64,000 nt of DNA from Candidatus Omnitrophota bacterium (GTDB lineage: Bacteria; Omnitrophota; Omnitrophia; Omnitrophales; Aquincolibacteriaceae), in contig JBAYVF010000007.1 of NCBI GenBank assembly GCA_041674705.1, positions 1,322 to 65,321 of the forward strand, in the 5' to 3' direction. The notes beneath the pieces were generated by a model. The model was not told the origin of the DNA, made no database searches, and worked only from the letters and a program-made list of their open reading frames with translations. Shown here in pieces: positions 5,330-64,000 of this stretch. Numbering within the stretch: the stretch's first letter is position 1; the number at the start of each line of letters is the position of its first letter. The position numbers were made by a program, and so were the translations under genes.

Positions 5330-5340
5330 AACCAGCTTAT

Positions 5341-5470: not shown

Positions 5471-5553
5471 GAGAGGTTTTTATGTCCCATGAAGCTTGGT
5501 CTGTGAAATTCTTTTCCTTTTATTCCCCTCTTCACAATCATTAGAACTCCGCC

Positions 5554-5647: not shown

Positions 5648-5740
5648 ATGACACTTATTTATTGGATCGGCGGAATCGTCTTCCTCTTGCTTTTTGTTTA
5701 TCTTGTGGCCGCTCTTCTGAAACCGGAACTGTTCTCATGA
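5648..5740 (+). CDS. kdpF: K+-transporting ATPase subunit F
   Basis: The 30-aa product [30 protein letters not shown] has the KdpF-type YLxxALLxPExF ending. An AAAGGGG RBS is present, and the stop overlaps the kdpA ATG (ATGA at 5737-5740). Confidence 0.8.
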   Translation: MTLIYWIGGIVFLLLFVYLVAALLKPELFS

Positions 5741-7479: not shown

Positions 7480-7490
7480 AGGAGCTTTGC

Positions 7491-9572: not shown

Positions 9573-9573
9573 T

Positions 9574-9626
9574 CCTGAGACTAATGTCTCAGGACAATAA
9601 GCAGATCGAAACTTGACGTTTCGATC
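9574..9626 (+). promoter_or_regulatory. Two perfect intercistronic hairpins between kdpB and kdpC
   Basis: CCTGAGAC-TAAT-GTCTCAGG (9574-9593) and GATCGAAAC-TTGAC-GTTTCGATC (9604-9626). Neither is followed by a T-run. Confidence 0.5.
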
Positions 9627-9641
9627 CATTGGGGAAAACTT

Positions 9642-10223
9642 ATGATACGAGAACAATTAAGACCGGCTGTAACTTCTTTTTTTCTGCTAACATTGATCAC
9701 AGGAATTCTTTATCCTTTATCTGTTACAGGGATCTCCCAGATCTTTTTCAAAGATCAAGCAAATGGAAGTCTGATTTTCAGAAACGGACAACCTTCGGGT
9801 TCTTTGTTGATCGGACAACCTTTTGATGATCCTAAGTATCTTTGGGGACGTTTGTCCTCCACAGCTCCTGTTTCTTTCAATGCCGCTGCTTCGTCAGGAT
9901 CCAACTTCGGTCCCACGAACCCGAATTTGCTGAGTGCTGTCCAAACGAGAATCAAAAGCCTGCGGGACGCAGATCCGAAAAATAAAAACCGTATCCCTGT
10001 GGATCTTGTCACCGGCTCTGCCAGCGGCCTCGATCCTCATATCAGTCCGGCGGCAGCCGAATACCAGGCCTCCCGGATCGCAAGAATAAGAAAAATATCC
10101 AGGGAAATAATCCGGTCGATTATTCGCCAACATACACAAGAACGCTTGTTTGGTATAATCGGCGAGCCTATCGTGAACGTCCTGGAAGTCAACCTGCAGT
10201 TGGATGCAAGCGTGAAGGAATAA
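9642..10223 (+). CDS. kdpC: K+-transporting ATPase subunit C
   Basis: 193 aa with an N-terminal TM anchor and KdpC-conserved SGSNFGPTNP and SASGLDPHISP segments. Confidence 0.9.
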   Translation: MIREQLRPAVTSFFLLTLITGILYPLSVTGISQIFFKDQANGSLIFRNGQPSGSLLIGQPFDDPKYLWGRLSSTAPVSFNAAASSGSNFGPTNPNLLSAVQTRIKSLRDADPKNKNRIPVDLVTGSASGLDPHISPAAAEYQASRIARIRKISREIIRSIIRQHTQERLFGIIGEPIVNVLEVNLQLDASVKE

Positions 10224-43812: not shown

Positions 43813-46800
43813 TTACGCAGAACGTAAGAGGGCAAACTGCGCCTGAACCTCGGAAACGAGGAAATGAATACGCTCACCGGCAAGACTGAGGAAGTTCTGG
43901 AACATTCTCGGGGTGATGCGTTGAACTGTAATATCCGAAAGCTGGTCTTTTAAAATTTCTGCGCCATAGAGAAGAGCTTTGAGGGCCATACGTTCTGTTT
44001 TAACTTGTTTTCTAAGAGCCGTTCTGGCGACCGAAAGGTTCTTTTCTGAGGCGACAATGATGCGCCGGTCCGGCGCAAGCCCGGCATTGAATTGTTCTAT
44101 AAAGGCGCGGTCTGTGACATCCCCCGCGATCACGGCCACGGGCGCATCCCCCAGGATCGTTCTGACCGCCGCTAAAAAGCCCTGGCCCAGCGCAAATTCG
44201 CGGCCGAGAATGAACGCATCCCCGGACTGAACTGTTTTGATGCCAAGCGCCTTCTTTGCTGCGTCAAAACGTGCCCGCATGAGAGTCTCCTGCGCTTTCT
44301 TGGCAAACGAGACCGGCAAGCGAGCAATGGCTGCCTCGGCTGCATTCAGCGTATAAGCAAAGAGAGAAATGATCCCGTCCATGATCTTTTCCGTCACGCC
44401 GCGGAGACCTTGTTCCGTGCCGCCGCCAAGACGCGCGTTCTCCTGAACAAACTTCTCCATGGTAAAAGCCTGCAACTTCGCCGGCAGTGGCAGATCCGAA
44501 ACCTTAGTGCGCATTTCGGAGCGGGGTTTTTCACTTTCTTTAAGAAAATCTTTTGCTTCAAGCGCTTCCCCAAAGAGCTTTGTCAAGAAAAGCAGGTTCC
44601 CCATCTCTTTTCCGTTTATCGTCTCAAGAGCAAGGATGATTTCCACCCGACCATCCAATCGGCCGATGGTTAATTCTTTATAAAATGCTTCCATCGCAGG
44701 ACGGTTCTCATTTAAGGTGTTTTGCAGCCGGCCAATAGCTTCACGAATTTCTGGTTTTGTTCTCTCAAGACCTTCTTTTTTATATTGACCGAACCACGCA
44801 AGATCCCAAAGGATCCGTGATTTCTCTTTTTCAGAGAATTGCCGCGTTTCCGAGCGGGGTTTTGTGGAAGTTAAAGCTTCGGTCTCTCGCAATGCGCCAA
44901 TGAGCTTTTCAATATCTTTGGCTTGAATCTTTATATTCCCGCCATGCTCTCCAAGAGCCGCAACCGCCGCCTCGGGAATACGCGACTGCACGATCACGGG
45001 CATGGTCAATCCGAGTTGCTTGATCTCATCAAGAACTGCCGCGGCTGAATTTGCGTGCTGCGCCTTCAGACTCATTTTTTGAAACTTTTCGACCAAGACC
45101 AAATGATAATCCAAAACAACCACGTTAATCTCGCTTCCCCTTTTTCTTAAGAGCAATTTCGCCTCTTTTACGTTGGAGGCCTCTAACACAAGCGTCGCAG
45201 GGAACAGTTGCTTTATTGCGGACGAATAAAAGCGCATCTCTCCATGATGATCTTCCACCAACAAAACGACTTTCCCGGCATTCTTGGTGTTTTGCGCTTC
45301 GTTTGTTGCGCCGAGTTCCTGGCGCGCCTGCCCGTCCGGTAGGCGGGCTTCGGAGCGGGGTGTGGCGTAGAGTTTCTCAACCTCCGCCAAGATGGTTTCG
45401 ACCACCTCCGGCGATAGTTCCTGACCGTTCATTTTTCGTAAATAATGCTGAAAAACCCGGAGTCTTTCGTCGCGAGGATGAGTCGAGCTAAGAAGTTCAC
45501 CGGAGATCGTCGGCAGAGCCCCTGCGGTAAGCCCGTAGGTCACAGCAGCCCAAAGCGCGGCCAGAACGGCCTTGGCGGAATCAAAGTCCTGAATCGAGGG
45601 GCTTTGGGACAGCGTCGTCGCCAAATCATTGATCGTAGGGCTTCCGAAAGAAAGAAAGCTGACCATCTGCACGACCGTTGTTTTCTGATCAAGCGCCGTG
45701 AAATAACCCAAAGCGGTTTCTTCAATAAGTTCGGACGCTTTAGCAACGTCGGATTTTTTCTGATCTTCTTCCCTCGTCTTTTCGGGAAGAGCGGCTTTGA
45801 TCCGAACCAAAAGAGGCGGCAATTCTTCAAAGGCTTTTATTTTTTCTAAAAGACGGATCGTGGCGGAGCCTTCCACGCCTAACGCCTTTGCCATCTTCCG
45901 AGCATCGGTTTCGTCAAAAGCGCTCAGAAGGACCATTCTCGGAGTATCAAATTTTTCAAGCATGAGACGGATCCATTCGGATCCTCTGACAAGCGGCATA
46001 GAATTATCGGTGACGATCAAGGGCCGCCCTTGCTTTGCTGCGATCTTGTCTTTGATCTTTTTTAAAGCCGAAACAACGTCCCCGGCTTCAACGACCGAAT
46101 ACCTTTCCCCACGGACAAGATCAACAACAGCCTCTCGGAACACACCCGAGTCGTCGACCACAAGGACCCATTCCCCTTGCGATGCCGCGTTCCATTTTTC
46201 GGCCAAGGCCGTAACATCGATCCCGTGGGAAAAAAGAGTTTTTTCAGTCTCTTCCGTACCGCGCGCTTCAGAGCGGGAATCGGCATTAGGCCACAGGGTC
46301 ACACGCGCTCCGAACTCAGTCCCGGTGGTGCGGTTTACTATCGGTATGCGCTGATATAAAAGACCGGCTTCTTCAATAATGTGAAGCCCCTCTCCGGCGC
46401 CCCCCAGGAGGTACTTCCCGGCTTTTTTCTTCGCCTCTACCCATTCGGCACTTTTTCCATCCTCCTTTTTGACCAGATTATAGGCTTCTATTTTCGAGCC
46501 TGTCAGATCCGCCCAAAGAAAGATCGGGAGTTGAAAGTCCAGTTTGCTGCCATGCCTAAAGGAGTTTTTCAATAATTCTCCGGTGGCCGTGAGGTGAAGG
46601 CCCATGGCCCTAAATCCGATCTTAGAAGCAACTTCTTTTTCGAAAAGATGAGCAAATCGATCGAGGCGAGCGGCGAAAACGCCGAAACGGTCGGTGTTCT
46701 CTGCGTCTTTTTCGGGAATATTCCGTAGATCCAGCTTGAGCATCTTTCCGCTGCGGATGCTTTCGACGATCAGCGCCTCATCAAGATCCGCAAAATCAAT

Positions 46801-49800
46801 TTCCACGACCTCATAGGCCCTGTTTAAATAAAGTTCTAGCGCAGAAGTTTCCGCCCACATTTTCGGGCTATCCGTGCGATAGAGTTTCTCTGCCTGGTCC
46901 AGAACGGTTTCGACCACTTCCGCCGAAAGCTTCTGCCCCGTCGATTTATTAAGCAAATACTCCTGAAAAATCCGCAGCCTTTCGTCGCGAGAATTAGATC
47001 TGAGAAGTTCGCCTGCGATCGTTGGCAGGGCGCCTTCGGTAAGCCCGTAGGTCACTGCAGCCCAAAGCGCGGTCAGCATGGCCTTGGCAGAATCAAAATC
47101 CTGGGGAGCGGGACTTCGGGACAAAACTGTCGCCAACTCATTGATCGTTGGTTTTCCGGCAAAAATAAAACCCGCCATTTGTCCGCTCATCGTTTTCGGG
47201 TCAGAATCCGGAAAATAACTCAAAACAGCCTCAGCAATAAGCTCCGCGGCCTGGGTATTGACAGGCTTTTTCGCCCCTTCTTCCCGCGCTTCGGAACGAA
47301 GCTTGAGAGAATTTGAAAGACGTTCCATAGCTTCGTTGAATCCGGTCGGAAGCTTAGGCCCCACATGTATTTTTGCTTTAAAGCTTAATTCGTTCATTTC
47401 CCCGAGCAGCGCATGACCTGCGGTCACAACGCTTTTGAGACGTTCTTCTTTTGCGGGATTGTAATCGTGCTGACGCATGTAACCGGAAATGGTGACCCCC
47501 AGCGTGTTCGCCCGCTGGATCATACTTTCCGGAGATTCAGTGGAGACTGCCTGTTGGGGGCGGGCTCCATTTTGATCATTCAAAATCGCATAGGCACCCG
47601 GCTTTTTTAGCGTTTCAGAAACAGCTGCTGCCTGCTGTACCGGAGGTGTAGCGGATGAAACAGGATAAAGAGCACTTAAGAGTTTTTGCGCGTATGCCCG
47701 GCCCATTAAACCGTTGAGTTTTTCTTCCAGCGCCGCGCGATTCTCAGGGGCAACGATCCGGTCTTCCGGCTCTGTTTTGGCTACGTCTTCAAATTCTCCA
47801 AGCTTCTGCGAAATATCCTTCCATTCCGCATATTCCATTTCCCATTTCTCAAATTCCTGACGATTGCCGGCAAACCGGGCGGAAGCATGTCGGGCTGCGT
47901 TACGCTCCGCAATGGCACGCGCCATGGCATGAGCAATCCATCTGAGCGCTTTTTGCCGCCTTTCCCCCTGGGCTTGCGGCGCCGGAGAAACAGTTTTGTG
48001 TTGTTCCGGTTGTTGTGTGAGCTTTTCGGCTTCCTTGCTTTTTAATGCTTCCCTACGCAACAAGCTTCTTAGTTGCTCGAGCGTCTCGTCTCGCGGTTGA
48101 ACGACCGCTGAGCCTCTTGATAGGCTCGCCATAAGCTCTTCGACGTCAGACTGCTCCATGTAGACGCGAAGGACCATTTTCCACAACTCAACATCTCCCG
48201 GATCAGCGACCTTTTTCTGCGGCATAGTCTCAAGATCCGCCTTGAACCGCTTGAGAGCCTGTAAAATGCCCTGCAGTTTCTTGTAATCAATGTCCCGGAT
48301 CGTAAGGTCCTCGTTGGCTTCGTTTTCAACGAATGGAATAGCCCTGTTAATCCAGGCTAATGCTTTTGCGTGATTGTCCGCTTGTGATTTTTCGATCTTT
48401 GCTTTCTGATCTCGAGGCTCCCGTGCCGGCGCCTGGAGTCCAAACACCTTCATGATCACCTGAGCTTCAATGGCCGGACGCCCGTGCGTAACCCAAAGCT
48501 CAGCCTCCCCGCCCCATTCCTTCACATGAACCGCTGCGGGAAAAGACATCTCTTCCCCGATCTCTGGGGATGAAGGAATCTTTTCGGCGAGGATCTTGCG
48601 AAAATCATTCCCGTTAGCGATCATACCGCCGCCTAAGCCGGCATGGCTTATCCCGTACTTTCGATTCATCGTGAAAGTGGTCCAGCGAACCGGCCCTCCC
48701 GTTTCTCTGTTAATCCGTTCATAAATGAATGGCGCGATCGCGAGAAGCTCGTCCCACGAATTGATCTGGATCTTGTCCTCAGATATAAGCTTGAGATTCT
48801 GCAAACGCATTTCGGAGCGAACATCCTTCTTTTCCGATTCGGAGCGTAAACTGCGGAGCGAAGACCGGATTTCACCAAGGTCGCTCGCCGGCTTTGCCGT
48901 TTCTTTTATCTTCTTGGAAATTTTCATCTCCCACAACGCCGGCGATCCGTTGAATCGCTCTTTCGCTTTAACAAACCCTGTTTTCTCTAAAAAAGAATCC
49001 GAGACCCGGTGTTGAAATATTCGTATTTTTTCAAAGCCATAAGCGTGGGCAAATCGCACAAGATGGTTTTCGATCCAATATTTCAAGACGCGCTCAGCAA
49101 CTTCGGTCGTTACATCTATGTGATTGCCTGGGATCTGCTCATACCTTCCAAAGCCCACTCCGAGCACCAGATCATTGCGATCGACGGAAAGCGGAATATG
49201 CAAAAAAGCATGGTAACCCGCCAACTGTTCCTTAGAAACCTCCTGCTGGATCACCTCACACGGCAAAGCGGCCACCGTAATAAAAAGGCGCCCGCCACCT
49301 TTATTGACCATGGCATAAAATCCTGTCTGGTCATAACTCCGGGGGGCTTTCTCTCTTGGGAAATAACCGCTTCCCGGGGACCAGAACACAATGTCTTCTG
49401 CGCCTTTTTTGAACAATCCGAGAAATTCCTCCGGGATCAACCCGGAAATGGTTTCACGGTCCTTAGAAGACATCGCATAATCATAAAAAAGCGACTGTTT
49501 CGTTGAGGGCATCCCACCTTCCAGCTCGACCGCAGCCCGGGTAATCTTCAAAACCTGAACATGCGTTTCTGCAGGAAGCTTCAAGTAAAGCCCTCTAGTT
49601 TTTAACTCCTGGAGCGTCAAGGTATTGTAAACTTCCCCTGTCATGGCATTTCGAATCTGGATACGCTCTTCATCCTGAAGGCCCAATTTTTCAGAGATCC
49701 ATTGAGAAATCTTTAAACCATCAAGCCAGGTTTCTCCGGAGCTTCTTGTCACTTCACGAATGCCTGTTTCCACCGCCACAATATTATGGTCATTAATCGC

Positions 49801-55800: not shown

Positions 55801-58800
55801 TTCTTCGGCTTCCTTCAGTATCCGGTCAAAAAGCCACTGGAAACTCTGGAACTGGACCTGCCGGCTTCCTTTAAGAAGGCTTTCGAGATTCTCCGCAAGG
55901 TCCGGATCTGTTCGCCGCAGAAGCTCGTCGGCGATCTCCATAAATCTCGGAGCATCGATCCGGCGGTCCATAAGGACATTGGCCACAACCTTCGCGGCTT
56001 TGGAGTTCGGATTCCGGGAAGCGATCACGGCCACGAGCTGTCGCGCCGCCTTGATCGTCTCATCATTCGGTTGCCCGAAAGACACATTGGTCACGGTCGC
56101 GCGAAGATCATTCTTATCATTCCAGATCTGCGTTCCAAGAAGGGCTGCAACCGACGCTTCGTCGCTCAAGACCATGGTAACAAGATTTTCCGGTCCACCT
56201 ATGGCTGCGGCCATGAGAGCCATATTAATTGTCGCGGGAAGAGCTGTTGCTTTTTCCGGAAGCGGCACAACCGCGGGAGCCTGACCGACCACCGGAAGAA
56301 GAGAAATTGTATTTTTTTGTTTTTGGCCTGTCTTACGTGCGGCTCTCAGATCCTTCGCGGTTGTTAAAAATACGTCGCGGCCGGCATCTGTAAAGAAATA
56401 GCAGATTTCGGCCCTGCCAGCCATGATCGGAGCCTGGCGAAGATACCCCATCCCGCGCTTTCCATCGGCCTGCTGGGCCAGTAACCCGTCGATCGCTTCT
56501 TTAAGCTCCGGCTCCGAAAGATCGGCCTTTATTCCCAAAATAGCCGCGAATTCCTTCAACCCGTATTGAAGCTCTCTCAGAGTTACATAACCGTGGAACC
56601 TTAACGCATTTTCAGCGCCGGTCATGTTGCAAAGAATTTTCCAGGCCATCCCGGCATTTAAAGAAGCTTTCTCTTGATCCCCTCTCGCCTCCGAACGCAA
56701 GGCGTTGACGTGGTCGATCGTTTCTTCCACGATCGGCGCGCCGGTTCGTCTAAAAAGTTCGAGTTTTTCCACCAGATCCGCAGCCGCCTGGGGCAGCCCG
56801 TTATGGAGGGCGATCTCGAGTCTTGAAAAATTGTGCGGCCAATGGGATTTTTCGATCTCCCGGATCTTTTCGGTCAGATCTTGCGCTGCCGGTGCTGCTT
56901 TCGATGTCCCGGCATCCTCACGCGCTTCAGAACGGGAAACACGGTCAATGGCAACGACACGATAGAAACGTTTTGCGGGAAGCACGCCGCCGGTGAAACT
57001 CCCGTCATCGATCCAGCTCGTTTGATCCCCGTCTGCGACGATCCCCCGCTGAGCGAGCTGCCAGGAACCGGTTTTCAGATCATCGCGATATTCGATCCGA
57101 TAAACAAAAGCGTCCTGGCTTGCGAATTCGACTTTAAAAGTTCCGTTCGTCAGCTTCAGCCCCTCGACCTCGGGGGCTTCCGTCGGCACAAATCCCGGCC
57201 GCCTTGTAGCGTTTGGCTCGATATTCAGCGTTGTTGTTGCCGTAATAGGGCTCGTGGTCGAGGTCTCAGCCAGTCTGCCCGTGCCCTTTTTTGCAATCAT
57301 AGCCCAGGGGCTTGTGACGCCAACATTTTGGATCTCCTGGCTGCCCCAATCGGAAGTCCGAAGCAGGTTGCGGGTTGCGCTCGCAACGCCTCTCCACATG
57401 CCGGCGTCATCCGATATTGCGAATAAAACAATAGCCCCTGCAGGTAACTCGCTTAAATAGCTTTGGAATTCCGTGTGCTCTGCATCGCTGTACGAAGTAT
57501 CAAAATGTTTGAAATCTTTTATCCTGATACCTGTCGTTTCATCTAAAATCGCGACGTTGAATCCCCGGGCTCCCTTATCGCCGCCAGCTCTCGAGTAGAC
57601 TGTTTTTCCGCCAATTTTAAAAACCGCGCTTCCGAACTCCCCCCCGGCTGAGGAGACCGAGAGCTCAGCATTGGTCACCAGAGGAATTGCCTCGTGACCG
57701 TTCAGCGCAAATCGCTGTTGAAACGCGGGAACAACCAGTTTGGGCTGGCGCGAAATGGTAAACCAACCAAACCACTTTTCATCGTTATACCCGGGATTGC
57801 CGTCAGGCTGGGCGTAGTTGTACTCGGTTGAATAGTTATGAACTCCGGGGTTCCCGCCTTTATGCCATTCATCTTGGAATTCAAACCCAAGCACGCCGGA
57901 GACGATACCGTTCGTTCTTTCAGCCGCAAGATTGAAAAAGATTTCATCCCAAAGACCGATATTGAAATCCCTCTGCATCTCCTGATTTTCCGCCAAGATC
58001 CGGTGATCAAAGGAGTCGGCCCCGAATTCGCTGACAAACACGGGCTTGGTTGAGATCCTGGCCCATTGGGAGAAAGCATCGGTAAAACTGGCGTTCCGAT
58101 AAAGCTGAAGTCCCCAAATGTCGACGCTTGGCGTCCAAGAATTAATGATGGTGCTTGAAAAATAATACCCTGCCGGCACGCCCCAGGCTGCGATATCAGG
58201 ATCCAGAAAGTGATAAGTTCCCCATGCCTTGGTTGTTTCTGACTTGGGTATATGCGGGTCACCAAAAAAACTAACGGCCGGATGATTCGTATCAAGGGAT
58301 TTAATGGTTTGAGCTGTCTCCTCCGTAAATTGAGCTGCGGCATCTAGGGTTGGAAATTTTCCGTAATAGCGATTGATATCCCATTCGTTTCCGATGCCCC
58401 AACCAAAAACCGCCGGATGATTTTTAAAAGCGTTCACGATCACGGGAATATTGCTCGAATTGGTCGTGTCATTAAAAAAGGGTGCGGTGACGGGAAGAAT
58501 GACCTTGATCCCGTATTTATAGAACATATCCAGAACAGCCTTCGCTTGGGCATTTGTCCCCATGTCATAATAAAGCCGCGCCACATTCACGCCCATGTCC
58601 GCCATTTTTGGGATATCGTTCGTGTACCATTTAAAAAATTCCTGGCGGAATCCGGCCGCATCGCCGTCGGGGTTGGAATTTGTGGAAGAGGGACTCCAAT
58701 TCACCCCTTTAAGGGTAAAAGCGTAGTTCGTTCCAAGGGTCCCATCCTGATTCCGCTCCTTTACAAAAATCCTCCGGTCGCCGGGCTGGGTGGAAACAAT

Positions 58801-61800
58801 GGCGGGTTTGTCAGGGACGCCGAATGTGCCCGCATAAATTTCGCGCACCAAGGAAAAAAGCATGATAAGCCCCGCGATCAACAGCCTGGTCCAGTTCGCG
58901 GTGCGCAATTCGGCCCGGGTTTTTGTGTGGCGGTTCAGGAAATCGAACCCTGCGAGTTTTCCGTTGGGAATCCCTTCGGGGGAAATCTCCAAAGGATCGC
59001 TTGTCGGAATCTCCTGGCCAAAACTCAAGGCGGTTACGACTGGCTTTGCTTCTTCTAGGGAAGATTTCGGGACAATAATGGCGCCGGCGAGTCCGGGAGC
59101 AAATACGATTTTATCCACAAACCCGAAATAAGGCTTCCATGAGTGCATCTCATCGCCTTGAACTTCCGCCGTGGTGTCCCAAGGATCGCTTTGTGCGATT
59201 TTCTGTTGAACCTCGGGTAGCGTTTCAGAGGTCGCCTGCAATAACGCTTCGACTTTGGCTTTTACTTCCTGGGTTCTGATATCGGAATCATAAAGCAGCT
59301 TCTTGGCTCCGGCGTGAGCCGTTTGGTAGCCCGGGTACAAAGGAGAATTTTTCGCTGTCCGGCCAAGAACCTCGCCGGCCTTATCAAGGGCCCTCTTGTC
59401 ATCCCTTCGGATCTGCATCCACGCATCAAGCTCTTCCAACGCTTCACGAAGCGCGACGTTCATCGCGGCCTGAGCGGTTTCTCCCCCGCGAACCTCGGAG
59501 CGCACCGCTTTTTCCGGCAACTGCGCCGTCAACGGTTGGATTTCTTCCGTGCCGGGACTCCAGATCTTGGCCTCTCTCCCTCGAGAAAGAACGATCAAGG
59601 GAACTCGTTCTTCATGGGAAAGCTCCCCGCTACTCTTGAAGGGATAATAGTGAACGATCAGAACAAGCTTCTTTCCCTTTTCCGAGACATTCTCAAGCAT
59701 CGGGAGTTTGCCGGCAGGGGGAATCCACTCTCCTTGGGCATTAAAGCGGAGCTTATCTTCGAGCAGCTTTGGGTTGACCACTCGCGTTGCCATTTCGATC
59801 GTTGAACTAGTTTCATCATAAAAGAAATACGTTTCAAGAATGAATGGCAATCCCTCGGAAACGATTTCCCCAAAACCTTCCTTGGTTAAAAGGTCTCCGA
59901 CTGTGGCAACTCCCTTGGCTCTGGCCTCATGGCCGGGATAAGCTTTCAAGGCGAGGCCGAAAAATTCTTCCTGAGAAAGAAAAGGTTTGGGCACGCCATT
60001 GGCAAGATAATAGCTCGTCACGCCGGATTCACCCGTGTCCCTTTTCAGGGTGGGCGCGTCAAAGAAAGTAGCGTTTAGTTTGTGGAAACTTAAATCCAAA
60101 GCCATGTTTCCAGCTCTTAAAAAAGACAGGAAGCCTTCCGCCCGGATAACCGTATTTTCCCTGGAAATTCGCGGGATCGTTTTCAAGATCTCCGGTTCGG
60201 TTTTCATCCATTGCTTCAACCACATGCCTGCCTCCGAAGCCGCCGCCTCTAAAAAACTCCTGGCCACGTCGCTGACCGGGATATCTCTTCTATCAAGCCA
60301 GGCTGGATCCACGGGATGAAAATCATGGTCCTGCCTCTCAAGGGCGTCAAAGCCTCGCTTCGCTTTTTCCAAAAGGTCCGCCTCTTCCCGCATGGCTCTT
60401 TCGACGCGGGAAATTGCGCGAACAATCTCCTCTTTCTGTCTGGCAGCATCTATTCTCCGGCCGTGATCCAAATAGTGTTCGTGCTTGGCCAAGGTATCTG
60501 CAGTGTGCTCCCCGAGATTGAGGAGATATTTGAGATCCTTTTCTATGTCGGGGAACGGTTCGTCGTTTCTCGTTTCTGATCTTTGCCTCTGCCACTCTCG
60601 CGCAACGCTTAAGACAACGCCAAAGTCGGTTTTTTGCTTGAGGATGGTTTCGGTCAGAATGCCGCCGGAGGTTCCAAATCCAAAAGGATTGTGATTATTT
60701 TTTAGATTTTTTTCAGCCACTTTCACTTTAACAAAAAACGACTGTTCTCCGGATCCCAAAAGGATGGGGTCTTTGACCGCAGCGAGTTCTTTTTCGTGGC
60801 CTTCCACAGGGAAGATCTGGACCGTATTGCCTTGCACGCTCTTCTGGAAAACAGGCTGCTGCGATCCGAAAATCTTGGGAGTTTGAGGGGCCGCCGGCGG
60901 GGCCATTCTTTCCTGGTCCCTCTTTTCCTTCATAATCCCGATGATCCAGCTCACAAGCTTGCTCTGATCATTCCATAAGAGCACCTCGCCATCGCTTTCT
61001 GCCCCCCCGTTGTGCTTGACCACGAGAAATTGATCCGGACCAACTTTAACGCCGTACTTGGCAGCCACATCGATCTCCAGTTCTGTTTCCGGAGGTAAAA
61101 TGCCGAGTTTCTGCCATTCTTTGAGCCCTTGGGTCAGATCATCCTTGGTCCACGCTTCGATCCGGTGCTCCCCGACCTGCAACTTGACCGCCGGTTCGCC
61201 GTTCACCTCCTCTTCGCGCGCTTCTGACCTTTTTCTTGACGTATCCGTCGCTAATCGCCCGATCTCAGCTTTCCATGTTTTGAAAGCCTCCTGTTTTTCC
61301 TTAAAGGTTTTATTTCTTAATGCTTCTAATCCGTTAACAAGACGCCCTAAAGCTTCTTCGGTCGCCGCCGGGCCTTTCCCAAACCAGATGGCTCCCCGAG
61401 CCCTTTCTCCCCCGCCCCTTTCATCCACGGAAAAAACAACAAGCTGTCCCCTGTCTGATTCTTGCTGTTTCTTTTTTCTGGAAAACTGGATTATCGGATA
61501 ATCGCTTTCGTCTTTTTTAAACTCGTCGCCAAAATAAACAGCGTCATTCAGATCCATCAGTCCGTCCTGAAACAGATCCTCGATGGGGGCGGCCTTACTA
61601 ACTCCTTCCGGCGTAATCTCAATCCCATTCAGATCGAAGGCGAGGACGCCCAGGCCGGAAATGCCGAGCTTTTCAATCTCACGCGCAATGATCTCTTTTA
61701 TAAAGCTCAGGACCTCCTTAGGTCTGTCGCTTTTTTCCAACCCATTGATCCGGAACATGAGCTGAGTATCACGATCATGCTTCGTCGGAGGCGACAGCCG

Positions 61801-64000
61801 GACAAGCTTTACCAGTTCGTTCCAAGAACTCTTGGAAGCTTCCCCCTTGACCAAGTATCCCTCGGGCTTGTCACTCTCAAGCGCACGGAATAATTTAATG
61901 AGAACATCGTCATAGATCTTCCTTTTGTTGTCAGGATTCGCCAACGCCCCTTTGCGGTAATTCCCGACTTCCTGCAAGACGCCGTTCTTGAAAACATATT
62001 TTTGGAGTCCCCTCACAGCATAAATAACCAAATGATCGAGAGCGCTCCCCTTGAAACGGTGAGCGTTTCTGACGCGAACCGCTCCCTCCCCTTCCTGAAT
62101 GAGAATATCGCTGACAACGCGCGGATACTGGACCTTGACCGATTGACCGCTGTTGATCACGACCAAGAAGTTCTGCTCTAAAAGGTATTGGATTTTTTTG
62201 CGCATGGATTCGGAGAGAAGTTCTCCGTGCGGGGCGATCGTTTTGTCCACATCCAGAATAACGGCGCCAGGTATTTTTTCAAACGTCTTGGGTTGTATCA
62301 GGGTCGTAGCAATGCGGGGTATCGAAGATATGCGCAGTTTCGCAAAAGCCCGGCTTGCCTCTTCAAGTTCCCGGATATCCTCGGATGTCCCGAGCTTTTT
62401 GACCGCGGCAGTCATCATGACGCGCTCTAATATAGCTATGTTTTGAGGACTTCTAAAAAACTGGAGAGCCGTATTCTTATAAATAGCCAGGTGGCTGGCA
62501 AGCTCTTCACCTTCAAGGTCCTCCGCAAGAACGTCCCGATCCAATCCATCGGTTTTGTCCGTTGCGCGAAGATCCAAGAATTCCAGATTCGGAGCACCTC
62601 TCTTCCGTTGACGCGTGATCCTTTTGACAGCCTCTTCTTCTTCGGAAGAAAGGACATAGACAAAAAACCTGCTCGCCTCATGATCATAAACTTCGACCGA
62701 GTTTGCATAGAAAATTCCGTGCTTATCATCATAATAAGGGGGCCCTTCAAAATCAGAACGTGCGACTTTCCGTATTCCCTTGGTAATGTCCTTCAGTTCC
62801 AAAAGCCTTTTGTCATCCACCGCCACACCTGTTTCGCTATGAATCAAACGCTTAATGGCTTCCCGGAAAGAGGGATCGCCGACACGCAAATGGCCGGACG
62901 CGGAAAGATTCCTTTCGCTTTCAGAATCCCGCTGCATAAGAACTTTTCCGTCCAGTGTTGTAAGAATGGCATGAACCGTAGCGTGGAGCGTCCCTCTTTG
63001 GTGGGCATCAACATAAGGCACTGAGGTGTCACTCAGAATCAAAGACCCGTCTTCCCCCTCGTCAACGGTCCGGATCATAGCTTCCTCGGGAGACCGCATA
63101 TTATGGATCCACCCAATGCGTCTTTTTGTGTTCACAAAAAGCCTTTGGAGAGGCCTCGTCTTCTCTTCGATCTCCCTGGATGTCTTTTGTACACCCTCAA
63201 TATCAGACGGCCCCCGGATCTTCAATTTTTCTCTCAGACTGTTTTGTAGTTTGCGATACTCTAAGGCCGCCCTGGAATAAGCGGCGAGCGCTTCTCCGTA
63301 ATACTTGCCTTTTTCATACTTTTCCGCTTCTGCAAAGGCCTTTTGCATCGTCCGGAGACTCCCCTGAGACATCCGGTCTGTTTCGTCCTGGAAGTTCCTT
63401 GAAGGAGGTTTTGTCTCCGCGACAACCCTTGCTTCAGAACGTGAAGACGGAACGGCCACACGTCTCCGGACCCACGTTTCCAGCCAAGGCAGAAAAGCGG
63501 CGTCTTTTTCAGATTCCTTTGTTAAAAAATTCAAAAATTTATTGATGCGCGCCGCTCTCGGGGGACACGCCGGGCACATTCTAGAAGGGTCCATCCCATT
63601 GAGAGCGTCTTTCCTGCCTTGTCCCTCCCAGATTTCCTTAAAAGATTTTACGGTAAGGTTTCCAAAACTCGTGTTCGACAAGTGAGCAACGTGACAGCAA
63701 GGAAAGATATTTCCTTGAGGGCCAAGGATCGCCAAAAAGGCATGCGCGGGGCAAGATTTAAAGTTGGGTTTTTCGGTGCCGCTTTTTGTTTCATTGGTCA
63801 CGAGGATCCTGAAGTTGTCCCCTTCCAGAGATTTGAGCTCTTCCAAAAAGACGGCGATCTCACGCCCCTGGGCCTTTGTAATACTGTTCGCCGCGACACC
63901 CTCAGGAGCCCTAACCCTTACATAGTCAGCCCCGATGCCCTTTGCCATTTTGATAAAGGCCGGAAGTTCCCTGTAATTCGCGGGCCTCAACACAAATCCC
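43813..64000 (-). CDS. Giant multi-domain ORF (at least 6,729 codons; N-terminus off-window)
   Basis: The minus-strand frame has no stop from the window edge (64000) to the TAA at 43813-43815. Recognisable domains occur along its full length, which argues that it is real coding sequence. The ORF-track start at 63993 is only an internal GTG. Confidence 0.9.
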   Translation of the reverse strand, partial: GFVLRPANYRELPAFIKMAKGIGADYVRVRAPEGVAANSITKAQGREIAVFLEELKSLEGDNFRILVTNETKSGTEKPNFKSCPAHAFLAILGPQGNIFPCCHVAHLSNTSFGNLTVKSFKEIWEGQGRKDALNGMDPSRMCPACPPRAARINKFLNFLTKESEKDAAFLPWLETWVRRRVAVPSSRSEARVVAETKPPSRNFQDETDRMSQGSLRTMQKAFAEAEKYEKGKYYGEALAAYSRAALEYRKLQNSLREKLKIRGPSDIEGVQKTSREIEEKTRPLQRLFVNTKRRIGWIHNMRSPEEAMIRTVDEGEDGSLILSDTSVPYVDAHQRGTLHATVHAILTTLDGKVLMQRDSESERNLSASGHLRVGDPSFREAIKRLIHSETGVAVDDKRLLELKDITKGIRKVARSDFEGPPYYDDKHGIFYANSVEVYDHEASRFFVYVLSSEEEEAVKRITRQRKRGAPNLEFLDLRATDKTDGLDRDVLAEDLEGEELASHLAIYKNTALQFFRSPQNIAILERVMMTAAVKKLGTSEDIRELEEASRAFAKLRISSIPRIATTLIQPKTFEKIPGAVILDVDKTIAPHGELLSESMRKKIQYLLEQNFLVVINSGQSVKVQYPRVVSDILIQEGEGAVRVRNAHRFKGSALDHLVIYAVRGLQKYVFKNGVLQEVGNYRKGALANPDNKRKIYDDVLIKLFRALESDKPEGYLVKGEASKSSWNELVKLVRLSPPTKHDRDTQLMFRINGLEKSDRPKEVLSFIKEIIAREIEKLGISGLGVLAFDLNGIEITPEGVSKAAPIEDLFQDGLMDLNDAVYFGDEFKKDESDYPIIQFSRKKKQQESDRGQLVVFSVDERGGGERARGAIWFGKGPAATEEALGRLVNGLEALRNKTFKEKQEAFKTWKAEIGRLATDTSRKRSEAREEEVNGEPAVKLQVGEHRIEAWTKDDLTQGLKEWQKLGILPPETELEIDVAAKYGVKVGPDQFLVVKHNGGAESDGEVLLWNDQSKLVSWIIGIMKEKRDQERMAPPAAPQTPKIFGSQQPVFQKSVQGNTVQIFPVEGHEKELAAVKDPILLGSGEQSFFVKVKVAEKNLKNNHNPFGFGTSGGILTETILKQKTDFGVVLSVAREWQRQRSETRNDEPFPDIEKDLKYLLNLGEHTADTLAKHEHYLDHGRRIDAARQKEEIVRAISRVERAMREEADLLEKAKRGFDALERQDHDFHPVDPAWLDRRDIPVSDVARSFLEAAASEAGMWLKQWMKTEPEILKTIPRISRENTVIRAEGFLSFLRAGNMALDLSFHKLNATFFDAPTLKRDTGESGVTSYYLANGVPKPFLSQEEFFGLALKAYPGHEARAKGVATVGDLLTKEGFGEIVSEGLPFILETYFFYDETSSTIEMATRVVNPKLLEDKLRFNAQGEWIPPAGKLPMLENVSEKGKKLVLIVHYYPFKSSGELSHEERVPLIVLSRGREAKIWSPGTEEIQPLTAQLPEKAVRSEVRGGETAQAAMNVALREALEELDAWMQIRRDDKRALDKAGEVLGRTAKNSPLYPGYQTAHAGAKKLLYDSDIRTQEVKAKVEALLQATSETLPEVQQKIAQSDPWDTTAEVQGDEMHSWKPYFGFVDKIVFAPGLAGAIIVPKSSLEEAKPVVTALSFGQEIPTSDPLEISPEGIPNGKLAGFDFLNRHTKTRAELRTANWTRLLIAGLIMLFSLVREIYAGTFGVPDKPAIVSTQPGDRRIFVKERNQDGTLGTNYAFTLKGVNWSPSSTNSNPDGDAAGFRQEFFKWYTNDIPKMADMGVNVARLYYDMGTNAQAKAVLDMFYKYGIKVILPVTAPFFNDTTNSSNIPVIVNAFKNHPAVFGWGIGNEWDINRYYGKFPTLDAAAQFTEETAQTIKSLDTNHPAVSFFGDPHIPKSETTKAWGTYHFLDPDIAAWGVPAGYYFSSTIINSWTPSVDIWGLQLYRNASFTDAFSQWARISTKPVFVSEFGADSFDHRILAENQEMQRDFNIGLWDEIFFNLAAERTNGIVSGVLGFEFQDEWHKGGNPGVHNYSTEYNYAQPDGNPGYNDEKWFGWFTISRQPKLVVPAFQQRFALNGHEAIPLVTNAELSVSSAGGEFGSAVFKIGGKTVYSRAGGDKGARGFNVAILDETTGIRIKDFKHFDTSYSDAEHTEFQSYLSELPAGAIVLFAISDDAGMWRGVASATRNLLRTSDWGSQEIQNVGVTSPWAMIAKKGTGRLAETSTTSPITATTTLNIEPNATRRPGFVPTEAPEVEGLKLTNGTFKVEFASQDAFVYRIEYRDDLKTGSWQLAQRGIVADGDQTSWIDDGSFTGGVLPAKRFYRVVAIDRVSRSEAREDAGTSKAAPAAQDLTEKIREIEKSHWPHNFSRLEIALHNGLPQAAADLVEKLELFRRTGAPIVEETIDHVNALRSEARGDQEKASLNAGMAWKILCNMTGAENALRFHGYVTLRELQYGLKEFAAILGIKADLSEPELKEAIDGLLAQQADGKRGMGYLRQAPIMAGRAEICYFFTDAGRDVFLTTAKDLRAARKTGQKQKNTISLLPVVGQAPAVVPLPEKATALPATINMALMAAAIGGPENLVTMVLSDEASVAALLGTQIWNDKNDLRATVTNVSFGQPNDETIKAARQLVAVIASRNPNSKAAKVVANVLMDRRIDAPRFMEIADELLRRTDPDLAENLESLLKGSRQVQFQSFQWLFDRILKEAEEALRDPENGTQHLLGARIILKQINRVVSALDKKDWTALRLHILVRFAERLSAEARRDDKLLMSVFLALYPDTARDFFLSVDTNFAQLSEVLENKDIESLLAQYGGFENFSQAIETLLSFACMAWPDSFFDYLKTRYPHAPVQIKASYLAAMRYGVASGVKTEGADGAARGTQREIVPERLLFVLENAIILAEETGPLVQRRVKMVLGGFGEAFIAYIGQGNRYAAYSDNQRSLLVEILLELAAGGLIPDGKQKVLPFILDEMSREKNEVIQQKILFADYFTNDFIGTLAEEQGKAVRKAIIEGYAIFRKNDLLVKNCQRIMAAFGMKAIEECYEFFRQRIELDYDMAMGVLTLGASAASIYQATTEADRKAFHRMVATVTRHTLEALQAKEAAIEDYYKLRKKISETYRDLEGLEGQVKTATENNKNVTYEVNKLSEEQDQAEKKNKYLESQRKALADHVAAGQSLIEAMERQVTWRQVMRQIAKDIRRFFSRPARQIGTPDIFADEDTFLEQAKRFVGERSEEVEQSLAKKIAIKVSGKPADKENSKKEKITLADFKGEFSVWQTLENLKKCRGALAEMSARLNGVAGEMIANRKRLMDLRPELDEAIAQQVAIADDFVTISDQFKKLTQNLEFMEGDGKKRVEENKQKTFRVTRDLFGVLRLFFRGPSIDANTVESSYRALRADDGEFLLTFLPLSTRERLSTAVPLQEIEEAFAKRVAFQAEHGIFKEELQEEVALFSEISAQGLMLPVSPEAVMFKTLIENLQKRKYLLDQTAAVAKIANELEMLRQKTRKTKERSFENVRRAAGVADALGDYMEEFLMMKFKGDTKTVGRLLCIFAMIEQEFGPEAAIEAIFARLSGEIGMNFIRPEEEVYEKPMTRAQLVEKWYRPYYFAIQELKEKVYETQKKLLEAEEGHGWDSGTNDAVLNYAMDLFRNPAVVTDMKRFIGNLAHEQIFIPWVLDWKRERDPSSKEEQKELALGAWTILGAMRVYLEQAPRVTTNVLKDVSGIHVPRQIAVLSYYFAKRINKIAEKLNQRESEQSLKLLERMRDIIGEDISVLEHGGEEVLVSIAIQEAITKLKKQLEHYTAPPAKGLPGGKPDMRLPGPQFGFLGIGESVSRALLNEREESETQDPTKRSELREDNWSDRLLEGVGKYDTDGYVRETTPDWHRMNVIAGIILDEIDRRPTAVSETIILDIAPGKFETLGISGPGINIKELLRRLVKMGLLQQEANAYALAVPREVFEIKTNQIRFIKERLEAHLAALQGQSHAGSRYLFQLISSYGNAVTQWPRFPVEASWPFLKAVALLTTDEKALLVKFIEDNKSRLTHVPLAGKVLLMLKPEPVKNWLSENAPNLIGRSIWYISPETWLAAGGLGRVGQFHTLGVKELIGDQAELIAFEPRYRYRFDAQGQLRRDVDYGKLPVPVEGISEKPDDILNLRLRKGSIHDRRDVPVAVYRGYNRYGIQVHLAEDLPAQDGGDPYYTKLLYRYGAEYGTAEWWEFAEFLAKASLIDLIRTETPIKKKLGAEYKYPVIWPNDGQSAFIAVFKRVLDDMARMPSDEIKRLLGDSGFELKDLLKALDEGISLEAALVHGTTHTFRNRPPNIGEDKIDGMRIDPKWKYLFRRFYKTDPTSGLIRSADSVNGVAAMHVQGIEHLDPETRILAITNGDDLESSSRVFQEIFKEESFQKKFPGADPWNPKPEEIVEAKKIAKTILKNDPRFKELDPEFENLDPEKIVIATSGRLVQEKTGLNRAFTDENIEYLVLQGVQVIIFGNIQAGYESRAMYDHLKGLQKKVNLMGPGRLFVATGWGIPEQRVVLAAEDVQVNDSDPVTEAAGFSETDGAANGALEITLPTPEGIYQQQGEILDFEKPASGNTVLATEESALGYRKAFERVIRKYKSNVKEFASFQAASKLLSQVLNSRLTAAAYLTEFSRSFARKEDPLGSLIDYVSGNEGEGQFFRSEWLRSSLVRAIETSKEAESVGSTNAHLRAFAMQSISAINDHNIVAVETGIREVTRSSGETWLDGLKISQWISEKLGLQDEERIQIRNAMTGEVYNTLTLQELKTRGLYLKLPAETHVQVLKITRAAVELEGGMPSTKQSLFYDYAMSSKDRETISGLIPEEFLGLFKKGAEDIVFWSPGSGYFPREKAPRSYDQTGFYAMVNKGGGRLFITVAALPCEVIQQEVSKEQLAGYHAFLHIPLSVDRNDLVLGVGFGRYEQIPGNHIDVTTEVAERVLKYWIENHLVRFAHAYGFEKIRIFQHRVSDSFLEKTGFVKAKERFNGSPALWEMKISKKIKETAKPASDLGEIRSSLRSLRSESEKKDVRSEMRLQNLKLISEDKIQINSWDELLAIAPFIYERINRETGGPVRWTTFTMNRKYGISHAGLGGGMIANGNDFRKILAEKIPSSPEIGEEMSFPAAVHVKEWGGEAELWVTHGRPAIEAQVIMKVFGLQAPAREPRDQKAKIEKSQADNHAKALAWINRAIPFVENEANEDLTIRDIDYKKLQGILQALKRFKADLETMPQKKVADPGDVELWKMVLRVYMEQSDVEELMASLSRGSAVVQPRDETLEQLRSLLRREALKSKEAEKLTQQPEQHKTVSPAPQAQGERRQKALRWIAHAMARAIAERNAARHASARFAGNRQEFEKWEMEYAEWKDISQKLGEFEDVAKTEPEDRIVAPENRAALEEKLNGLMGRAYAQKLLSALYPVSSATPPVQQAAAVSETLKKPGAYAILNDQNGARPQQAVSTESPESMIQRANTLGVTISGYMRQHDYNPAKEERLKSVVTAGHALLGEMNELSFKAKIHVGPKLPTGFNEAMERLSNSLKLRSEAREEGAKKPVNTQAAELIAEAVLSYFPDSDPKTMSGQMAGFIFAGKPTINELATVLSRSPAPQDFDSAKAMLTALWAAVTYGLTEGALPTIAGELLRSNSRDERLRIFQEYLLNKSTGQKLSAEVVETVLDQAEKLYRTDSPKMWAETSALELYLNRAYEVVEIDFADLDEALIVESIRSGKMLKLDLRNIPEKDAENTDRFGVFAARLDRFAHLFEKEVASKIGFRAMGLHLTATGELLKNSFRHGSKLDFQLPIFLWADLTGSKIEAYNLVKKEDGKSAEWVEAKKKAGKYLLGGAGEGLHIIEEAGLLYQRIPIVNRTTGTEFGARVTLWPNADSRSEARGTEETEKTLFSHGIDVTALAEKWNAASQGEWVLVVDDSGVFREAVVDLVRGERYSVVEAGDVVSALKKIKDKIAAKQGRPLIVTDNSMPLVRGSEWIRLMLEKFDTPRMVLLSAFDETDARKMAKALGVEGSATIRLLEKIKAFEELPPLLVRIKAALPEKTREEDQKKSDVAKASELIEETALGYFTALDQKTTVVQMVSFLSFGSPTINDLATTLSQSPSIQDFDSAKAVLAALWAAVTYGLTAGALPTISGELLSSTHPRDERLRVFQHYLRKMNGQELSPEVVETILAEVEKLYATPRSEARLPDGQARQELGATNEAQNTKNAGKVVLLVEDHHGEMRFYSSAIKQLFPATLVLEASNVKEAKLLLRKRGSEINVVVLDYHLVLVEKFQKMSLKAQHANSAAAVLDEIKQLGLTMPVIVQSRIPEAAVAALGEHGGNIKIQAKDIEKLIGALRETEALTSTKPRSETRQFSEKEKSRILWDLAWFGQYKKEGLERTKPEIREAIGRLQNTLNENRPAMEAFYKELTIGRLDGRVEIILALETINGKEMGNLLFLTKLFGEALEAKDFLKESEKPRSEMRTKVSDLPLPAKLQAFTMEKFVQENARLGGGTEQGLRGVTEKIMDGIISLFAYTLNAAEAAIARLPVSFAKKAQETLMRARFDAAKKALGIKTVQSGDAFILGREFALGQGFLAAVRTILGDAPVAVIAGDVTDRAFIEQFNAGLAPDRRIIVASEKNLSVARTALRKQVKTERMALKALLYGAEILKDQLSDITVQRITPRMFQNFLSLAGERIHFLVSEVQAQFALLRSA
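44890..45273 (-). other. Giant ORF domain: receiver (REC)-like domain 2
   Basis: KVVLLVEDHHGE...NVVVLDYHL...MPVIVQSR... Confidence 0.5.
45367..45739 (-). repeat. Giant ORF internal duplication, copy 2
   Basis: ASELIEETALGYF...PTINDLATTLSQSPSIQDFDSAKAVLAALWAAVTYGLTAGALPTISGELL...RDERLRVFQHYL...EVVETILAEVEKLY. It lies about 1.5 kb from copy 1. Confidence 0.85.
45841..46170 (-). other. Giant ORF domain: receiver (REC) domain 1
   Basis: WVLVVDDSG...PLIVTDNSMP...MVLLSAF... Confidence 0.6.
46282..46630 (-). other. Giant ORF domain: GHKL/HATPase_c-like ATPase (SpoIIAB-type)
   Basis: The N-box-like segment is TGELLKNSFRHG, the G-box-like segment is LLGGAGEGLHII, and the domain ends FGARVTLW. Confidence 0.5.
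46879..47250 (-). repeat. Giant ORF internal duplication, copy 1 (~124 aa module)
   Basis: AAELIAEAVLSYF...PTINELATVLSRSPAPQDFDSAKAMLTALWAAVTYGLTEGALPTIAGELL...RDERLRIFQEYL...EVVETVLDQAEKLY. A DNA stretch such as GGTAAGCCCGTAGGTCAC.GCAGCCCAAAGCGCGG is shared with copy 2. Confidence 0.85.
48960..49330 (-). other. Giant ORF domain: GNAT-like fold (tentative)
   Basis: FYAMVNKGGGRLFITVAAL...VLGVGFGR...HAYGFEKIRIFQHRVSDSFLEKTGFVK. Confidence 0.3.
49985..51730 (-). other. Giant ORF domain: GT-B fold, GT35 (alpha-glucan phosphorylase)-like, lacking the PLP lysine
   Basis: IWYISPETWLAAGGLGRVGQ...WPNDGQSAF...SVNGVAAMHV...TSGRLVQEKTG...TEAAGFSETDGAANGAL (50255-50305) aligns with the GT35 EASGT(G/S)NMKxxxNGA motif, with Asp at the Lys position. 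Confidence 0.55.
52390..56682 (-). other. Giant ORF module: ~1,430-aa predominantly helical or coiled region with no domain I recognise
   Basis: The module is bounded by the RSEAR (56683-56697) and RSELR (52375-52389) motifs. It is rich in E/K/A/L heptad-like stretches, e.g. YYKLRKKISETYRDLEGLEGQVKTATENNKNVTYEVNKLSEEQDQAEKKNKYLESQRKAL. Confidence 0.4.
56940..57200 (-). other. Giant ORF domain: beta-sandwich module ending in RFYRVV
   Basis: LKLTNGTFKVEFASQDAFVYRIEYRDDLKTGSWQLAQRGIVADGDQTSWIDDG...AKRFYRVVAID. Confidence 0.4.
57270..57660 (-). other. Giant ORF domain: ILEI/PANDER (FAM3)-like carbohydrate-binding domain
   Basis: RGFNVAILDETTGIRIKDFKHFDTSYSDAEHTEFQSYLSELPAGAIVLFAISDDAG...DWGSQEI. 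Confidence 0.55.
57700..58740 (-). other. Giant ORF domain: clan GH-A (GH5/GH72-like) TIM-barrel glycoside hydrolase
   Basis: LKGVNWSP...MGVNVARLYY...WGIGNEW (58381-58398; candidate acid/base) ...VFVSEFGADS (about 58022-58042; candidate nucleophile). Confidence 0.55.
58846..58893 (-). other. Giant ORF: internal signal-peptide-like / single TM segment
   Basis: HTKTRAELRTANWTR-LLIAGLIMLFSLV-REIYAG has a basic n-region, a 13-aa hydrophobic core and a small-residue c-region. It is the only strongly hydrophobic stretch I found in the ORF. Confidence 0.6.
61489..62271 (-). other. Giant ORF domain: HAD-superfamily (type IIB-like) phosphatase
   Basis: Motif I is ILDVDKT (Asp codon at 62251-62253). 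A large cap region follows, then motif IV YFGDEFKKDESD. Confidence 0.6.
62629..63021 (-). other. Giant ORF domain: Nudix/IDI-like fold (degenerate)
   Basis: HQRGTLHATVHAILTTLDGKVLMQRDSESERNLSASGHLRVGDPSFREAIKRLIHSETGV resembles the IDI-type Nudix layout. Confidence 0.4.
63514..64000 (-). other. Giant ORF domain: C-terminal half of a radical SAM enzyme with SPASM/auxiliary-cluster-like Cys pattern
   Basis: ...GADYVRVRAP...KSCPAHAFLAILGPQGNIFPCCHV...FGNLTVKSFKEIWEG...RMCPACP. The radical SAM core itself would lie beyond the window. Confidence 0.55.

Follow-up and report, generated by a model that had tools for sequence, protein, structure and literature searches.

Does a giant bacterial gene specify one very long protein or many ordinary ones? 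We examined this question in a 64,000-nucleotide stretch of a Candidatus Omnitrophota genome (hereafter the window: contig JBAYVF010000007.1 of assembly GCA_041674705.1, positions 1,322 to 65,321), in which a stop-free open reading frame (ORF) occupies the minus strand at 43813..>64000 and is open at the window's right edge. The window holds the last 6,728 codons of this giant gene, whose full length in the source contig is 9,439 amino acids (aa), and the same 9,439-aa gene call occurs in two independent public assemblies (ENA ERZ27247358 and Logan SRR6484325). Giant genes of Omnitrophota encode proteins of up to 147,155 aa. West-Roberts et al. (2023; bioRxiv 10.1101/2023.11.21.568195) suspected post-translational cleavage of such proteins, had no information on cleavage points, and so could not split them; Nielsen and Lui (2026; bioRxiv 10.64898/2026.06.07.730766) read the giants as single long membrane proteins. 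We find that the modules of the window's giant protein meet at a conserved five-residue junction motif, R-S-E-x-R, which is strongly enriched, is conserved as a peptide and in position, and coincides with the termini of stand-alone homologues. We postulate that the ORF encodes a bacterial polyprotein and that a co-evolving endopeptidase recognizes it at the motif, a reading that we hold to be moderately probable.

A conserved motif at the module joints

A first-pass annotation of the window had listed 13 copies of RSE.R and one variant, RAELR, and all of them were found in the frame of the minus-strand giant ORF. Its rough guess that less than one copy would be expected by chance was borne out: composition predicts 0.14 copies, and 5,000 residue shuffles gave a mean of 0.14 and a maximum of 4. 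RSE.R is the commonest pattern in the protein that has four fixed residues in four to six positions; the runner-up, with 8 copies, overlaps it, and the next unrelated pattern has 7. The variable position holds only A, T, M, V, or L (and I in relatives), so the motif can be written R-[SA]-E-[LAVMIT]-R, for which the protein has 14 sites against 0.15 expected. Because the ORF is cut by the window edge, additional copies upstream are possible.

The codons vary at every position of the motif (Arg CGT/CGC/CGG/AGA/AGG, Ser TCT/TCC/TCA/TCG, and Glu GAA/GAG). Conservation is therefore at the peptide level, as had been proposed, and this scrambling led us to reject a DNA-level repeat or recombination core. 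Outside the giant ORF, R[SA]E.R matches three times in the window's stop-free stretches of at least 100 aa and in no case in the frame of a called gene (0/3), in agreement with the initial impression that the window's other proteins lack it. The claimed bias in flanking residues is real but weak: when the sites of the giant and its homologues are taken together (36 in all), S, P, G, or K precedes the motif (position -1) in 22, and E, G, Q, or S follows it (position +1) in 20. Ala stands in place of Ser at 8 of these 36 sites, so that phosphorylation of the Ser cannot be essential, and it was discarded as a candidate function. We also observed that all 13 motif Ser codons in the window are TCN, though 31% of the ORF's Ser codons are AGY (P of about 0.008). 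Three of the seven motif Ser codons in a related ORF (L011, 6923-17230) are AGC, so the all-TCN pattern is not general; the bias may hint at the origin of new copies.

Homologous ORFs carry the same punctuation that the first-pass annotation had proposed to look for, with the motif at the same module boundaries in proteins of 33 to 49% identity. In seven multi-module proteins from independent metagenomes, the window's included, it lies 7 to 13 residues before the "LLEGVG" start of a large glucan synthase/phosphorylase-like module (here, the GT module), in the form RSELR (window, P0001, and L014), RAEVR (P0002 and L011), KSELR (P0003), or RSEMR (L012). It recurs shortly after the C-terminal end of this module in each protein that extends far enough, and no homologue has it inside the roughly 1,150-aa module. 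The linker around the motif is unalignable, leaving "DVRSEMR" (RSEMR at residue 5061), which is identical in the window protein and L011, as an island of identity. The C-terminal module common to these two proteins is preceded by the motif in both (RSEMR versus RSEIR). Copy numbers far exceed expectation in the relatives as well (8 versus 0.05 in L011, 6 versus 0.05 in P0002, and 4 versus 0.06 in L014), and their motif codons also vary, with Ser encoded by AGC as well as TCN in L011. The order of the modules is not the same in all relatives. In some lineages the variable residue is uniform (RSEMR four times in L012, R[SA]ELR six times in L014, and RAEVR six times in P0002), suggesting that the sites co-evolve with a reader that acts in trans. 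P0002 has motifs in tandem within its linkers, 20 to 35 aa apart, as expected for redundant cut sites. In L011, L012, and L014, large ORFs that adjoin the main one also contain the motif. The window protein and the L011 ORF both end in ...RSA* (43816-43830 in the window), which looks like a truncated motif.

The copies had been said to fall between domains, and this holds for every domain that could be delimited. We number residues of the giant protein from nucleotide 63999, and all features named here are on the minus strand; the SPASM, NUDIX, HAD, GH2-like, ILEI, and REC1 assignments come from Pfam. RSEAR at residue 187 (63427..63441) follows the radical-SAM/SPASM part (SPASM domain, residues 86 to 146), and RSEAR at 924 (61216..61230) follows a module with NUDIX (338 to 401) and HAD (about 765 to 826) domains. 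RSETR at 1140 (60568..60582), RSEVR at 1500 (59488..59502), and the RAELR variant at 1695 (58903..58917) lead up to a secreted glycoside hydrolase, which is closed by RSEAR at 2356 (56920..56934). The next RSEAR, at 2435 (56683..56697), closes a 79-aa segment. RSELR at 3871 (52375..52389) lies 7 residues before the GT module (48820..52374; 1,185 aa, residues 3876 to 5060), and RSEMR at 5061 (48805..48819) follows that module, which is 34 to 49% identical to proteins with the starch-synthase domain PF08323 and whose AlphaFold2 model matches GT-B structures of glycogen phosphorylase and starch synthase. Toward the C terminus, RSEAR at 6215 (45343..45357) and RSETR at 6382 (44842..44856) precede RSEMR at 6493 (44509..44523), after which comes the C-terminal module (43816..44508; residues 6498 to 6728), 39% identical to its counterpart in L011. 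The annotation had named a second receiver domain, REC2; a Pfam match is present after residue 6215, but it is below threshold (E = 0.035).

The motif does not separate every domain; it bounds multi-domain proteins, as a duplication within the chain illustrates. Copy 1 of the duplicated domain (46873-47301; residues 5567 to 5709) is paired with an anti-sigma-kinase (HATPase)-like domain (46276..46815; residues 5729 to 5908), and copy 2 (45361..45789; residues 6071 to 6213), 62% identical to it, is paired with REC1, a response-regulator receiver domain recognized by Pfam (45868..46167; residues 5945 to 6044). The kinase-like label comes only from the names of two homologues in source databases, and Pfam gave no match there; the domain itself is common to many long Omnitrophota multi-module proteins. 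Copy 1 has a motif at its N side only (RSEAR at 5568, 47284..47298), and a further RSEAR, at 5909 (46261..46275), follows the kinase-like domain. Copy 2 has one at its C side only, with "EKTREED" at the N-side position, which indicates that the motif was gained or lost after duplication according to the neighboring module. Since it is kept only at the outer edges of the two pairs, the units that it delimits are proteins and not folds.

Complete proteins between the motifs

The clearest case is the hydrolase (56935..58902; residues 1700 to 2355), a module with a GH2-like TIM barrel (1853 to 2010), an ILEI domain (2145 to 2239), and a beta-sandwich. Residues from about 1696 to 2357 correspond to the full span of the stand-alone proteins P0095 to P0101 (647 to 664 aa, up to 67% identity), which are encoded by separate genes with unrelated neighbors. 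The Met and Sec signal peptide of these proteins (in P0095, MKTHPRNLIALFIAGFSILFALTRNAYA|G) align with TANWTRLLIAGLIMLFSLVREIYA|G in the giant (58831..58902; residues 1700 to 1723), immediately after RAELR, where the first-pass annotation had seen a signal-peptide-like segment. At the other end, the stand-alone C termini (...IDRVTRT*, ...RM*, and ...RS*) align with the ...IDRVS-RS that leads into RSEAR at 2356, such that the stop falls inside the motif, at its first two residues. Overall, motif boundaries and the true N and C termini of stand-alone homologues are 0 to 9 residues apart. We considered whether the giant is a mere fusion of a stand-alone hydrolase operon and rejected this, as the neighbors of that gene are not homologous to the adjacent modules of the giant.

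The GT segment likewise matches stand-alone proteins, P0004 and P0005. The Met of P0004 lies 14 residues before its "FLEGIG" GT start, and RSELR in the window protein ends 7 residues before the equivalent "LLEGVG." By the measure of the hydrolase (GH/ILEI) and GT segments, the ORF encodes several complete proteins.

The embedded signal peptide bears directly on whether the chain could function intact. Its membrane-like character exceeds that of any other segment in the 6,728 residues, and it has kept its n-, h-, and c-regions and A-x-A site. Cytoplasmic-type enzymes precede it, and beyond the hydrolase lie 4,370 residues made up of cytoplasmic-type modules (GT-B fold, HATPase-like, and REC) with no further membrane segment. 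With no return segment after the signal peptide, an uncut chain would export all later modules, which makes no topological sense.

In other Omnitrophota proteins, different peptides occupy an equivalent joint. Where the giant has RSEAR 5909, just past the final strand of the kinase-like domain, we found PDKAM/PDEAM (P0015), DPAM (P0034), DGAM (P0006), DAAM (P0007), and SPAM (P0010); in each of the relatives, the lineage's own motif comes next after the C-terminal end of this domain. P0015 (L018:81-8039) has 8 copies of P-D-x-A-M-L, and P0034 has 9 of D-x-A-M. A third class, A-S-S-P-[VIL], has 3 to 6 copies in P0013 (L019:1981-10467; 6 copies), P0009, P0093, and P0016 and was not seen at the position of RSEAR 5909. 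Class counts of 5 to 9 compare with 0.04 to 0.3 expected, and codons vary in all three classes. The classes are almost mutually exclusive, each protein having essentially one. Unrelated motifs at the same place in other lineages imply that a reader and its motif would co-evolve. In P0015, two D-x-A-M sites are followed by apparent signal peptides that start at the motif's Met.

Two further observations concern these long proteins. A "GGID[FL][RK]" stretch recurs after the kinase-like domain or the junction motif in P0006, P0012, P0013, P0014, P0016, P0020, P0029, P0038, and P0093 and is probably the beginning of a further small, conserved module whose function is unknown. At L013:2-21919, on a 386-kb contig from the Joint Genome Institute (JGI), at least 7,306 aa are encoded without a stop, and the frame runs out of the locus on both sides; the stretch includes the same GT module, but all three junction motifs are absent from it and no other short motif is enriched.

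Proposed processing and its alternatives

The first-pass annotation had left two possibilities, cleavage of a polyprotein or a conserved junction. The junction is established by homologue boundaries and stand-alone termini, and we favor cleavage, at a position in or beside the motif and by an endopeptidase, on the strength of the sequence patterns described above. We envisage that ordinary, self-sufficient proteins are translated as one chain: a radical-SAM/SPASM protein, a NUDIX-HAD protein, the secreted glycoside hydrolase, a glucan synthase/phosphorylase-like enzyme, an anti-sigma-kinase-like protein, and response regulators, besides several that have no known function. At the joints stands R-[S/A]-E-[L/A/V/M/I/T]-R, in an otherwise variable, probably unstructured linker. 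A site-specific endopeptidase would recognize the motif and cut the chain into its component proteins, and cutting would free the N-terminal Sec signal peptide of the hydrolase for export. The peptidase would probably act in trans, because adjoining large ORFs of the same genomes bear the same motif. Reader and motif would co-evolve by lineage, as they do in viral polyproteins. We speculate that the Arg at the last motif position would fit an Arg-directed endopeptidase.

Several observations weigh against this proposal. Pfam detected no peptidase domain in the 6,728 of 9,439 residues present in the window or in the L011, L012, and L014 ORFs, and the sole peptidase among the window's neighboring genes is an M24 family enzyme; the M24 family is known for exopeptidases. 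The three motif classes are chemically unrelated, so that either one protease family would have had to change its specificity drastically or different proteases would have to have been recruited. Some long relatives (L013, P0008, P0019, and P0021) have no detectable motif. L011 carries an extra RSEVR in a 9-aa insert, "GRSEVRSGA" (residues about 3222 to 3232), inside the C-terminal module, which is continuous in the window protein. Of 10 membrane-like segments, 1 follows a motif site, against 0.6 expected; such segments are too few for a general excess to be shown. Structure prediction, which had been proposed as a check for disordered linkers, places RSELR at 3871 in coil with a predicted local distance difference test score (pLDDT) of <50 ahead of the first helix of the AlphaFold2 model, but the alignment is shallow there and low pLDDT is consequently weak evidence.

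The search for a protease yielded candidates that we did not retain. "GTSGG" in module m3 was considered as a chymotrypsin-type catalytic serine region, but it aligns equally poorly with the Rossmann GxGxxG (E = 0.5), and the single-sequence AlphaFold2 model of m3 (pLDDT 47.6) was unusable. No HExxH motif was found. The "HG...AC" pair in the N-terminal module of P0003 looked clan-CD-like by eye and was without Pfam support. Two side observations belong here. A 211-aa module of unknown function (60583-61215, minus strand; residues 929 to 1139) ends in "GFGTSGGILTETILKQKTDFGVVLSVAREW," 30 residues before RSETR; this stretch resembles both the chymotrypsin-type catalytic-serine region and the Rossmann GxGxxG, and Pfam, PDB, and AlphaFold2 did not decide between them. 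An 839-aa gene of the subtilisin family (Peptidase_S8; L022:5389-7908) lies directly downstream of P0096, one of the stand-alone hydrolase homologues.

An intact giant is an unlikely alternative, in our judgment. The linker motif would then be bound by a scaffold, chaperone, or regulator, or would serve as a hinge or helix cap between modules. Binding motifs, too, have the signature of conserved islands within variable linkers, no protease was found, and the published view is that the giants are single long membrane-anchored proteins. Such a junction leaves unexplained, however, why the motif stands at the exact termini of stand-alone proteins, why a Sec signal peptide with its A-x-A site has been retained, and how cytoplasmic-type enzymes could follow that peptide with no return membrane segment. 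A structural hinge in particular would not be expected to show unrelated motifs at the same position or tandem arrays, and an essential phosphorylation of the motif's Ser does not fit with its replacement by Ala. Separate proteins might also arise during translation, by "StopGo"/2A-like release or by internal initiation, with no protease involved. Peptide-level conservation is compatible with this, and the Met of D-x-A-M does look like the first residue of the downstream signal peptide. We nevertheless consider translational punctuation very improbable: only five residues are conserved, between variable flanks, whereas the 2A and arrest peptides that have been described depend on a longer stretch of nascent chain, and 2A is not known to act on bacterial ribosomes. 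Internal initiation fares no better, since a Shine-Dalgarno-like sequence with a start codon follows the motif at 3 of 14 sites, compared with 20% of random positions, and the translation of the upstream module would be left unterminated.

That the motif is a functionless scar of module joining, left at a recombination or cassette-insertion site, strikes us as slightly less credible again. The shuffling of modules among relatives, the 9-aa insert of L011 with its RSEVR, and the Ser codons of the window's motifs (13/13 TCN against a background of 69%) all lend themselves to this explanation. A neutral scar would decay, however, and here the residues are kept over scrambled synonymous sites in proteins only 33 to 49% identical, a pattern that already points to purifying selection on the five residues. 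The use of AGC in L011, the lack of the nucleotide-level core that a recombination site needs, and the retention or loss of the motif by context after the duplication also speak against a scar. Chance, composition bias, and assembly or annotation artifacts are excluded as explanations of the motif by the 14 sites found against 0.15 expected, by the two assemblies with the same gene, by the presence of the motif at homologous positions in independent metagenomes, and by the protein-level homologues of several modules.

More tentatively, and with slightly less than even confidence, we extend the polyprotein reading to the "multi-enzyme" giants of Omnitrophota at large, which may be operon-like polyproteins instead of giant proteins: chains of ordinary cytoplasmic, membrane, and secreted proteins joined in frame, which co-evolving proteases would cut at lineage-specific motifs (R-[SA]-E-x-R, D-x-A-M, A-S-S-P, and others).

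Relation to known systems and genomic setting

Nielsen and Lui (2026) describe a class of "multi-enzyme metabolic cluster" giants (their class 1), which the window gene probably matches in taxon, to judge from the source names of homologues, and with which it shares a repertoire of starch synthase (PF08323), REC, radical SAM, HAD, NUDIX, and HATPase domains. As in that class, many enzyme domains tile one polypeptide without a dominant one; at 9,439 aa, the protein falls just under the catalogue's arbitrary cutoff of at least 10,000 aa. The same authors found the membrane-helix density of giants equal to that of ordinary proteins. A polyprotein reading would explain this proteome-like density as well as the internal signal peptides. 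The words cleavage, motif, linker, and processing do not occur in their text, and the junction motif is reported neither there nor by West-Roberts et al. (2023). In full-text searches of the literature we came upon nothing relevant on these motifs or on polyproteins in Omnitrophota.

Polyprotein processing itself is well known; what would be new is its use for chromosomal genes of a cellular lineage. The viral polyproteins processed by picornavirus 3C, potyvirus NIa, or flavivirus NS2B-NS3 also place many complete proteins in one ORF, with a short joint motif in flexible linkers and small spacer segments between sites, and their motifs are lineage specific and co-vary with the reader, to which we liken the motif of the giant. 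Unlike these, the giant gene sits among housekeeping genes in the chromosome of a cellular organism, its products are metabolic, signaling, and secreted proteins, and no protease domain was found in the chain. Bacterial multi-module precursors that are cut between modules include the MARTX toxins, which have a cysteine protease domain, and the gingipain polyproteins RgpA, Kgp, and HagA of Porphyromonas; in gingipain precursors the cut falls after Arg or Lys, with which the terminal Arg of R-S-E-x-R is compatible. Both groups are secreted virulence factors whose precursors include a recognizable protease domain, and their specificity is simple, for one residue, whereas the giant consists mostly of cytoplasmic-type enzymes and has four fixed motif residues and no detectable protease domain.

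Smaller precursors offer partial parallels. In multi-cassette precursors of ribosomally synthesized and post-translationally modified peptides (RiPPs), such as the cyanobactin precursor PatE, a short recognition sequence of 4 to 5 residues is repeated for dedicated proteases, as the motif is repeated in the giant; PatE cassettes are about 8 residues long, however, and the units of the giant are whole proteins of 79 to 1,436 residues. The adhesins of Mycoplasma hyopneumoniae resemble it in having a short, degenerate processing-site motif (S/T-X-F|X-D/E) within large multi-domain proteins, but these are surface adhesins whose products are fragments of one protein, and the giant is a concatenation of unrelated enzymes.

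The motif supplies the first candidate cut points for giant bacterial proteins. If the chain is indeed cut there, a mode of expression known mainly from viruses would be used on a large scale by a cellular lineage, and motifs of this kind would allow giant ORFs to be split computationally into their real products for annotation and structure prediction. The motif also provides a handle for the protease, which could be sought among gene families that vary together with the class of motif.

Homologues of the GT and kinase-like modules that are named in their sources all belong to "Candidatus Omnitrophica/Omnitrophota bacterium," and those of the hydrolase module include a Verrucomicrobiaceae protein. 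The window has no rRNA or other marker gene. The giant protein itself is absent from both protein libraries searched, and a word-indexed homologue search with its C-terminal 1,229 aa gave no match. A single scan of the N-terminal 900 aa against the genome collection returned generic radical-SAM/SPASM matches and no close relative, an exact-DNA scan of JGI metagenomes for the upstream 8 kb returned no match, and comparison of the whole protein with PDB sequences gave only weak FAM3/ILEI and REC matches. The part of the protein within the window (43816-63999, minus strand) is very poor in Cys, with 13 in 6,728 residues (0.2%), 5 of which are in the SPASM region (residues 83 to 145).

The remainder of the window encodes ordinary housekeeping functions, including kdpABCD, SOD, ThyA, transketolase, GGT, and an MqnA-like gene. 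A cyclic di-AMP (c-di-AMP) riboswitch (Rfam RF00379, 69 bits) at 5332-5480 on the plus strand lies directly upstream of the kdpA-kdpB-kdpC-kdpD operon (5662-12416), an arrangement that is already known.

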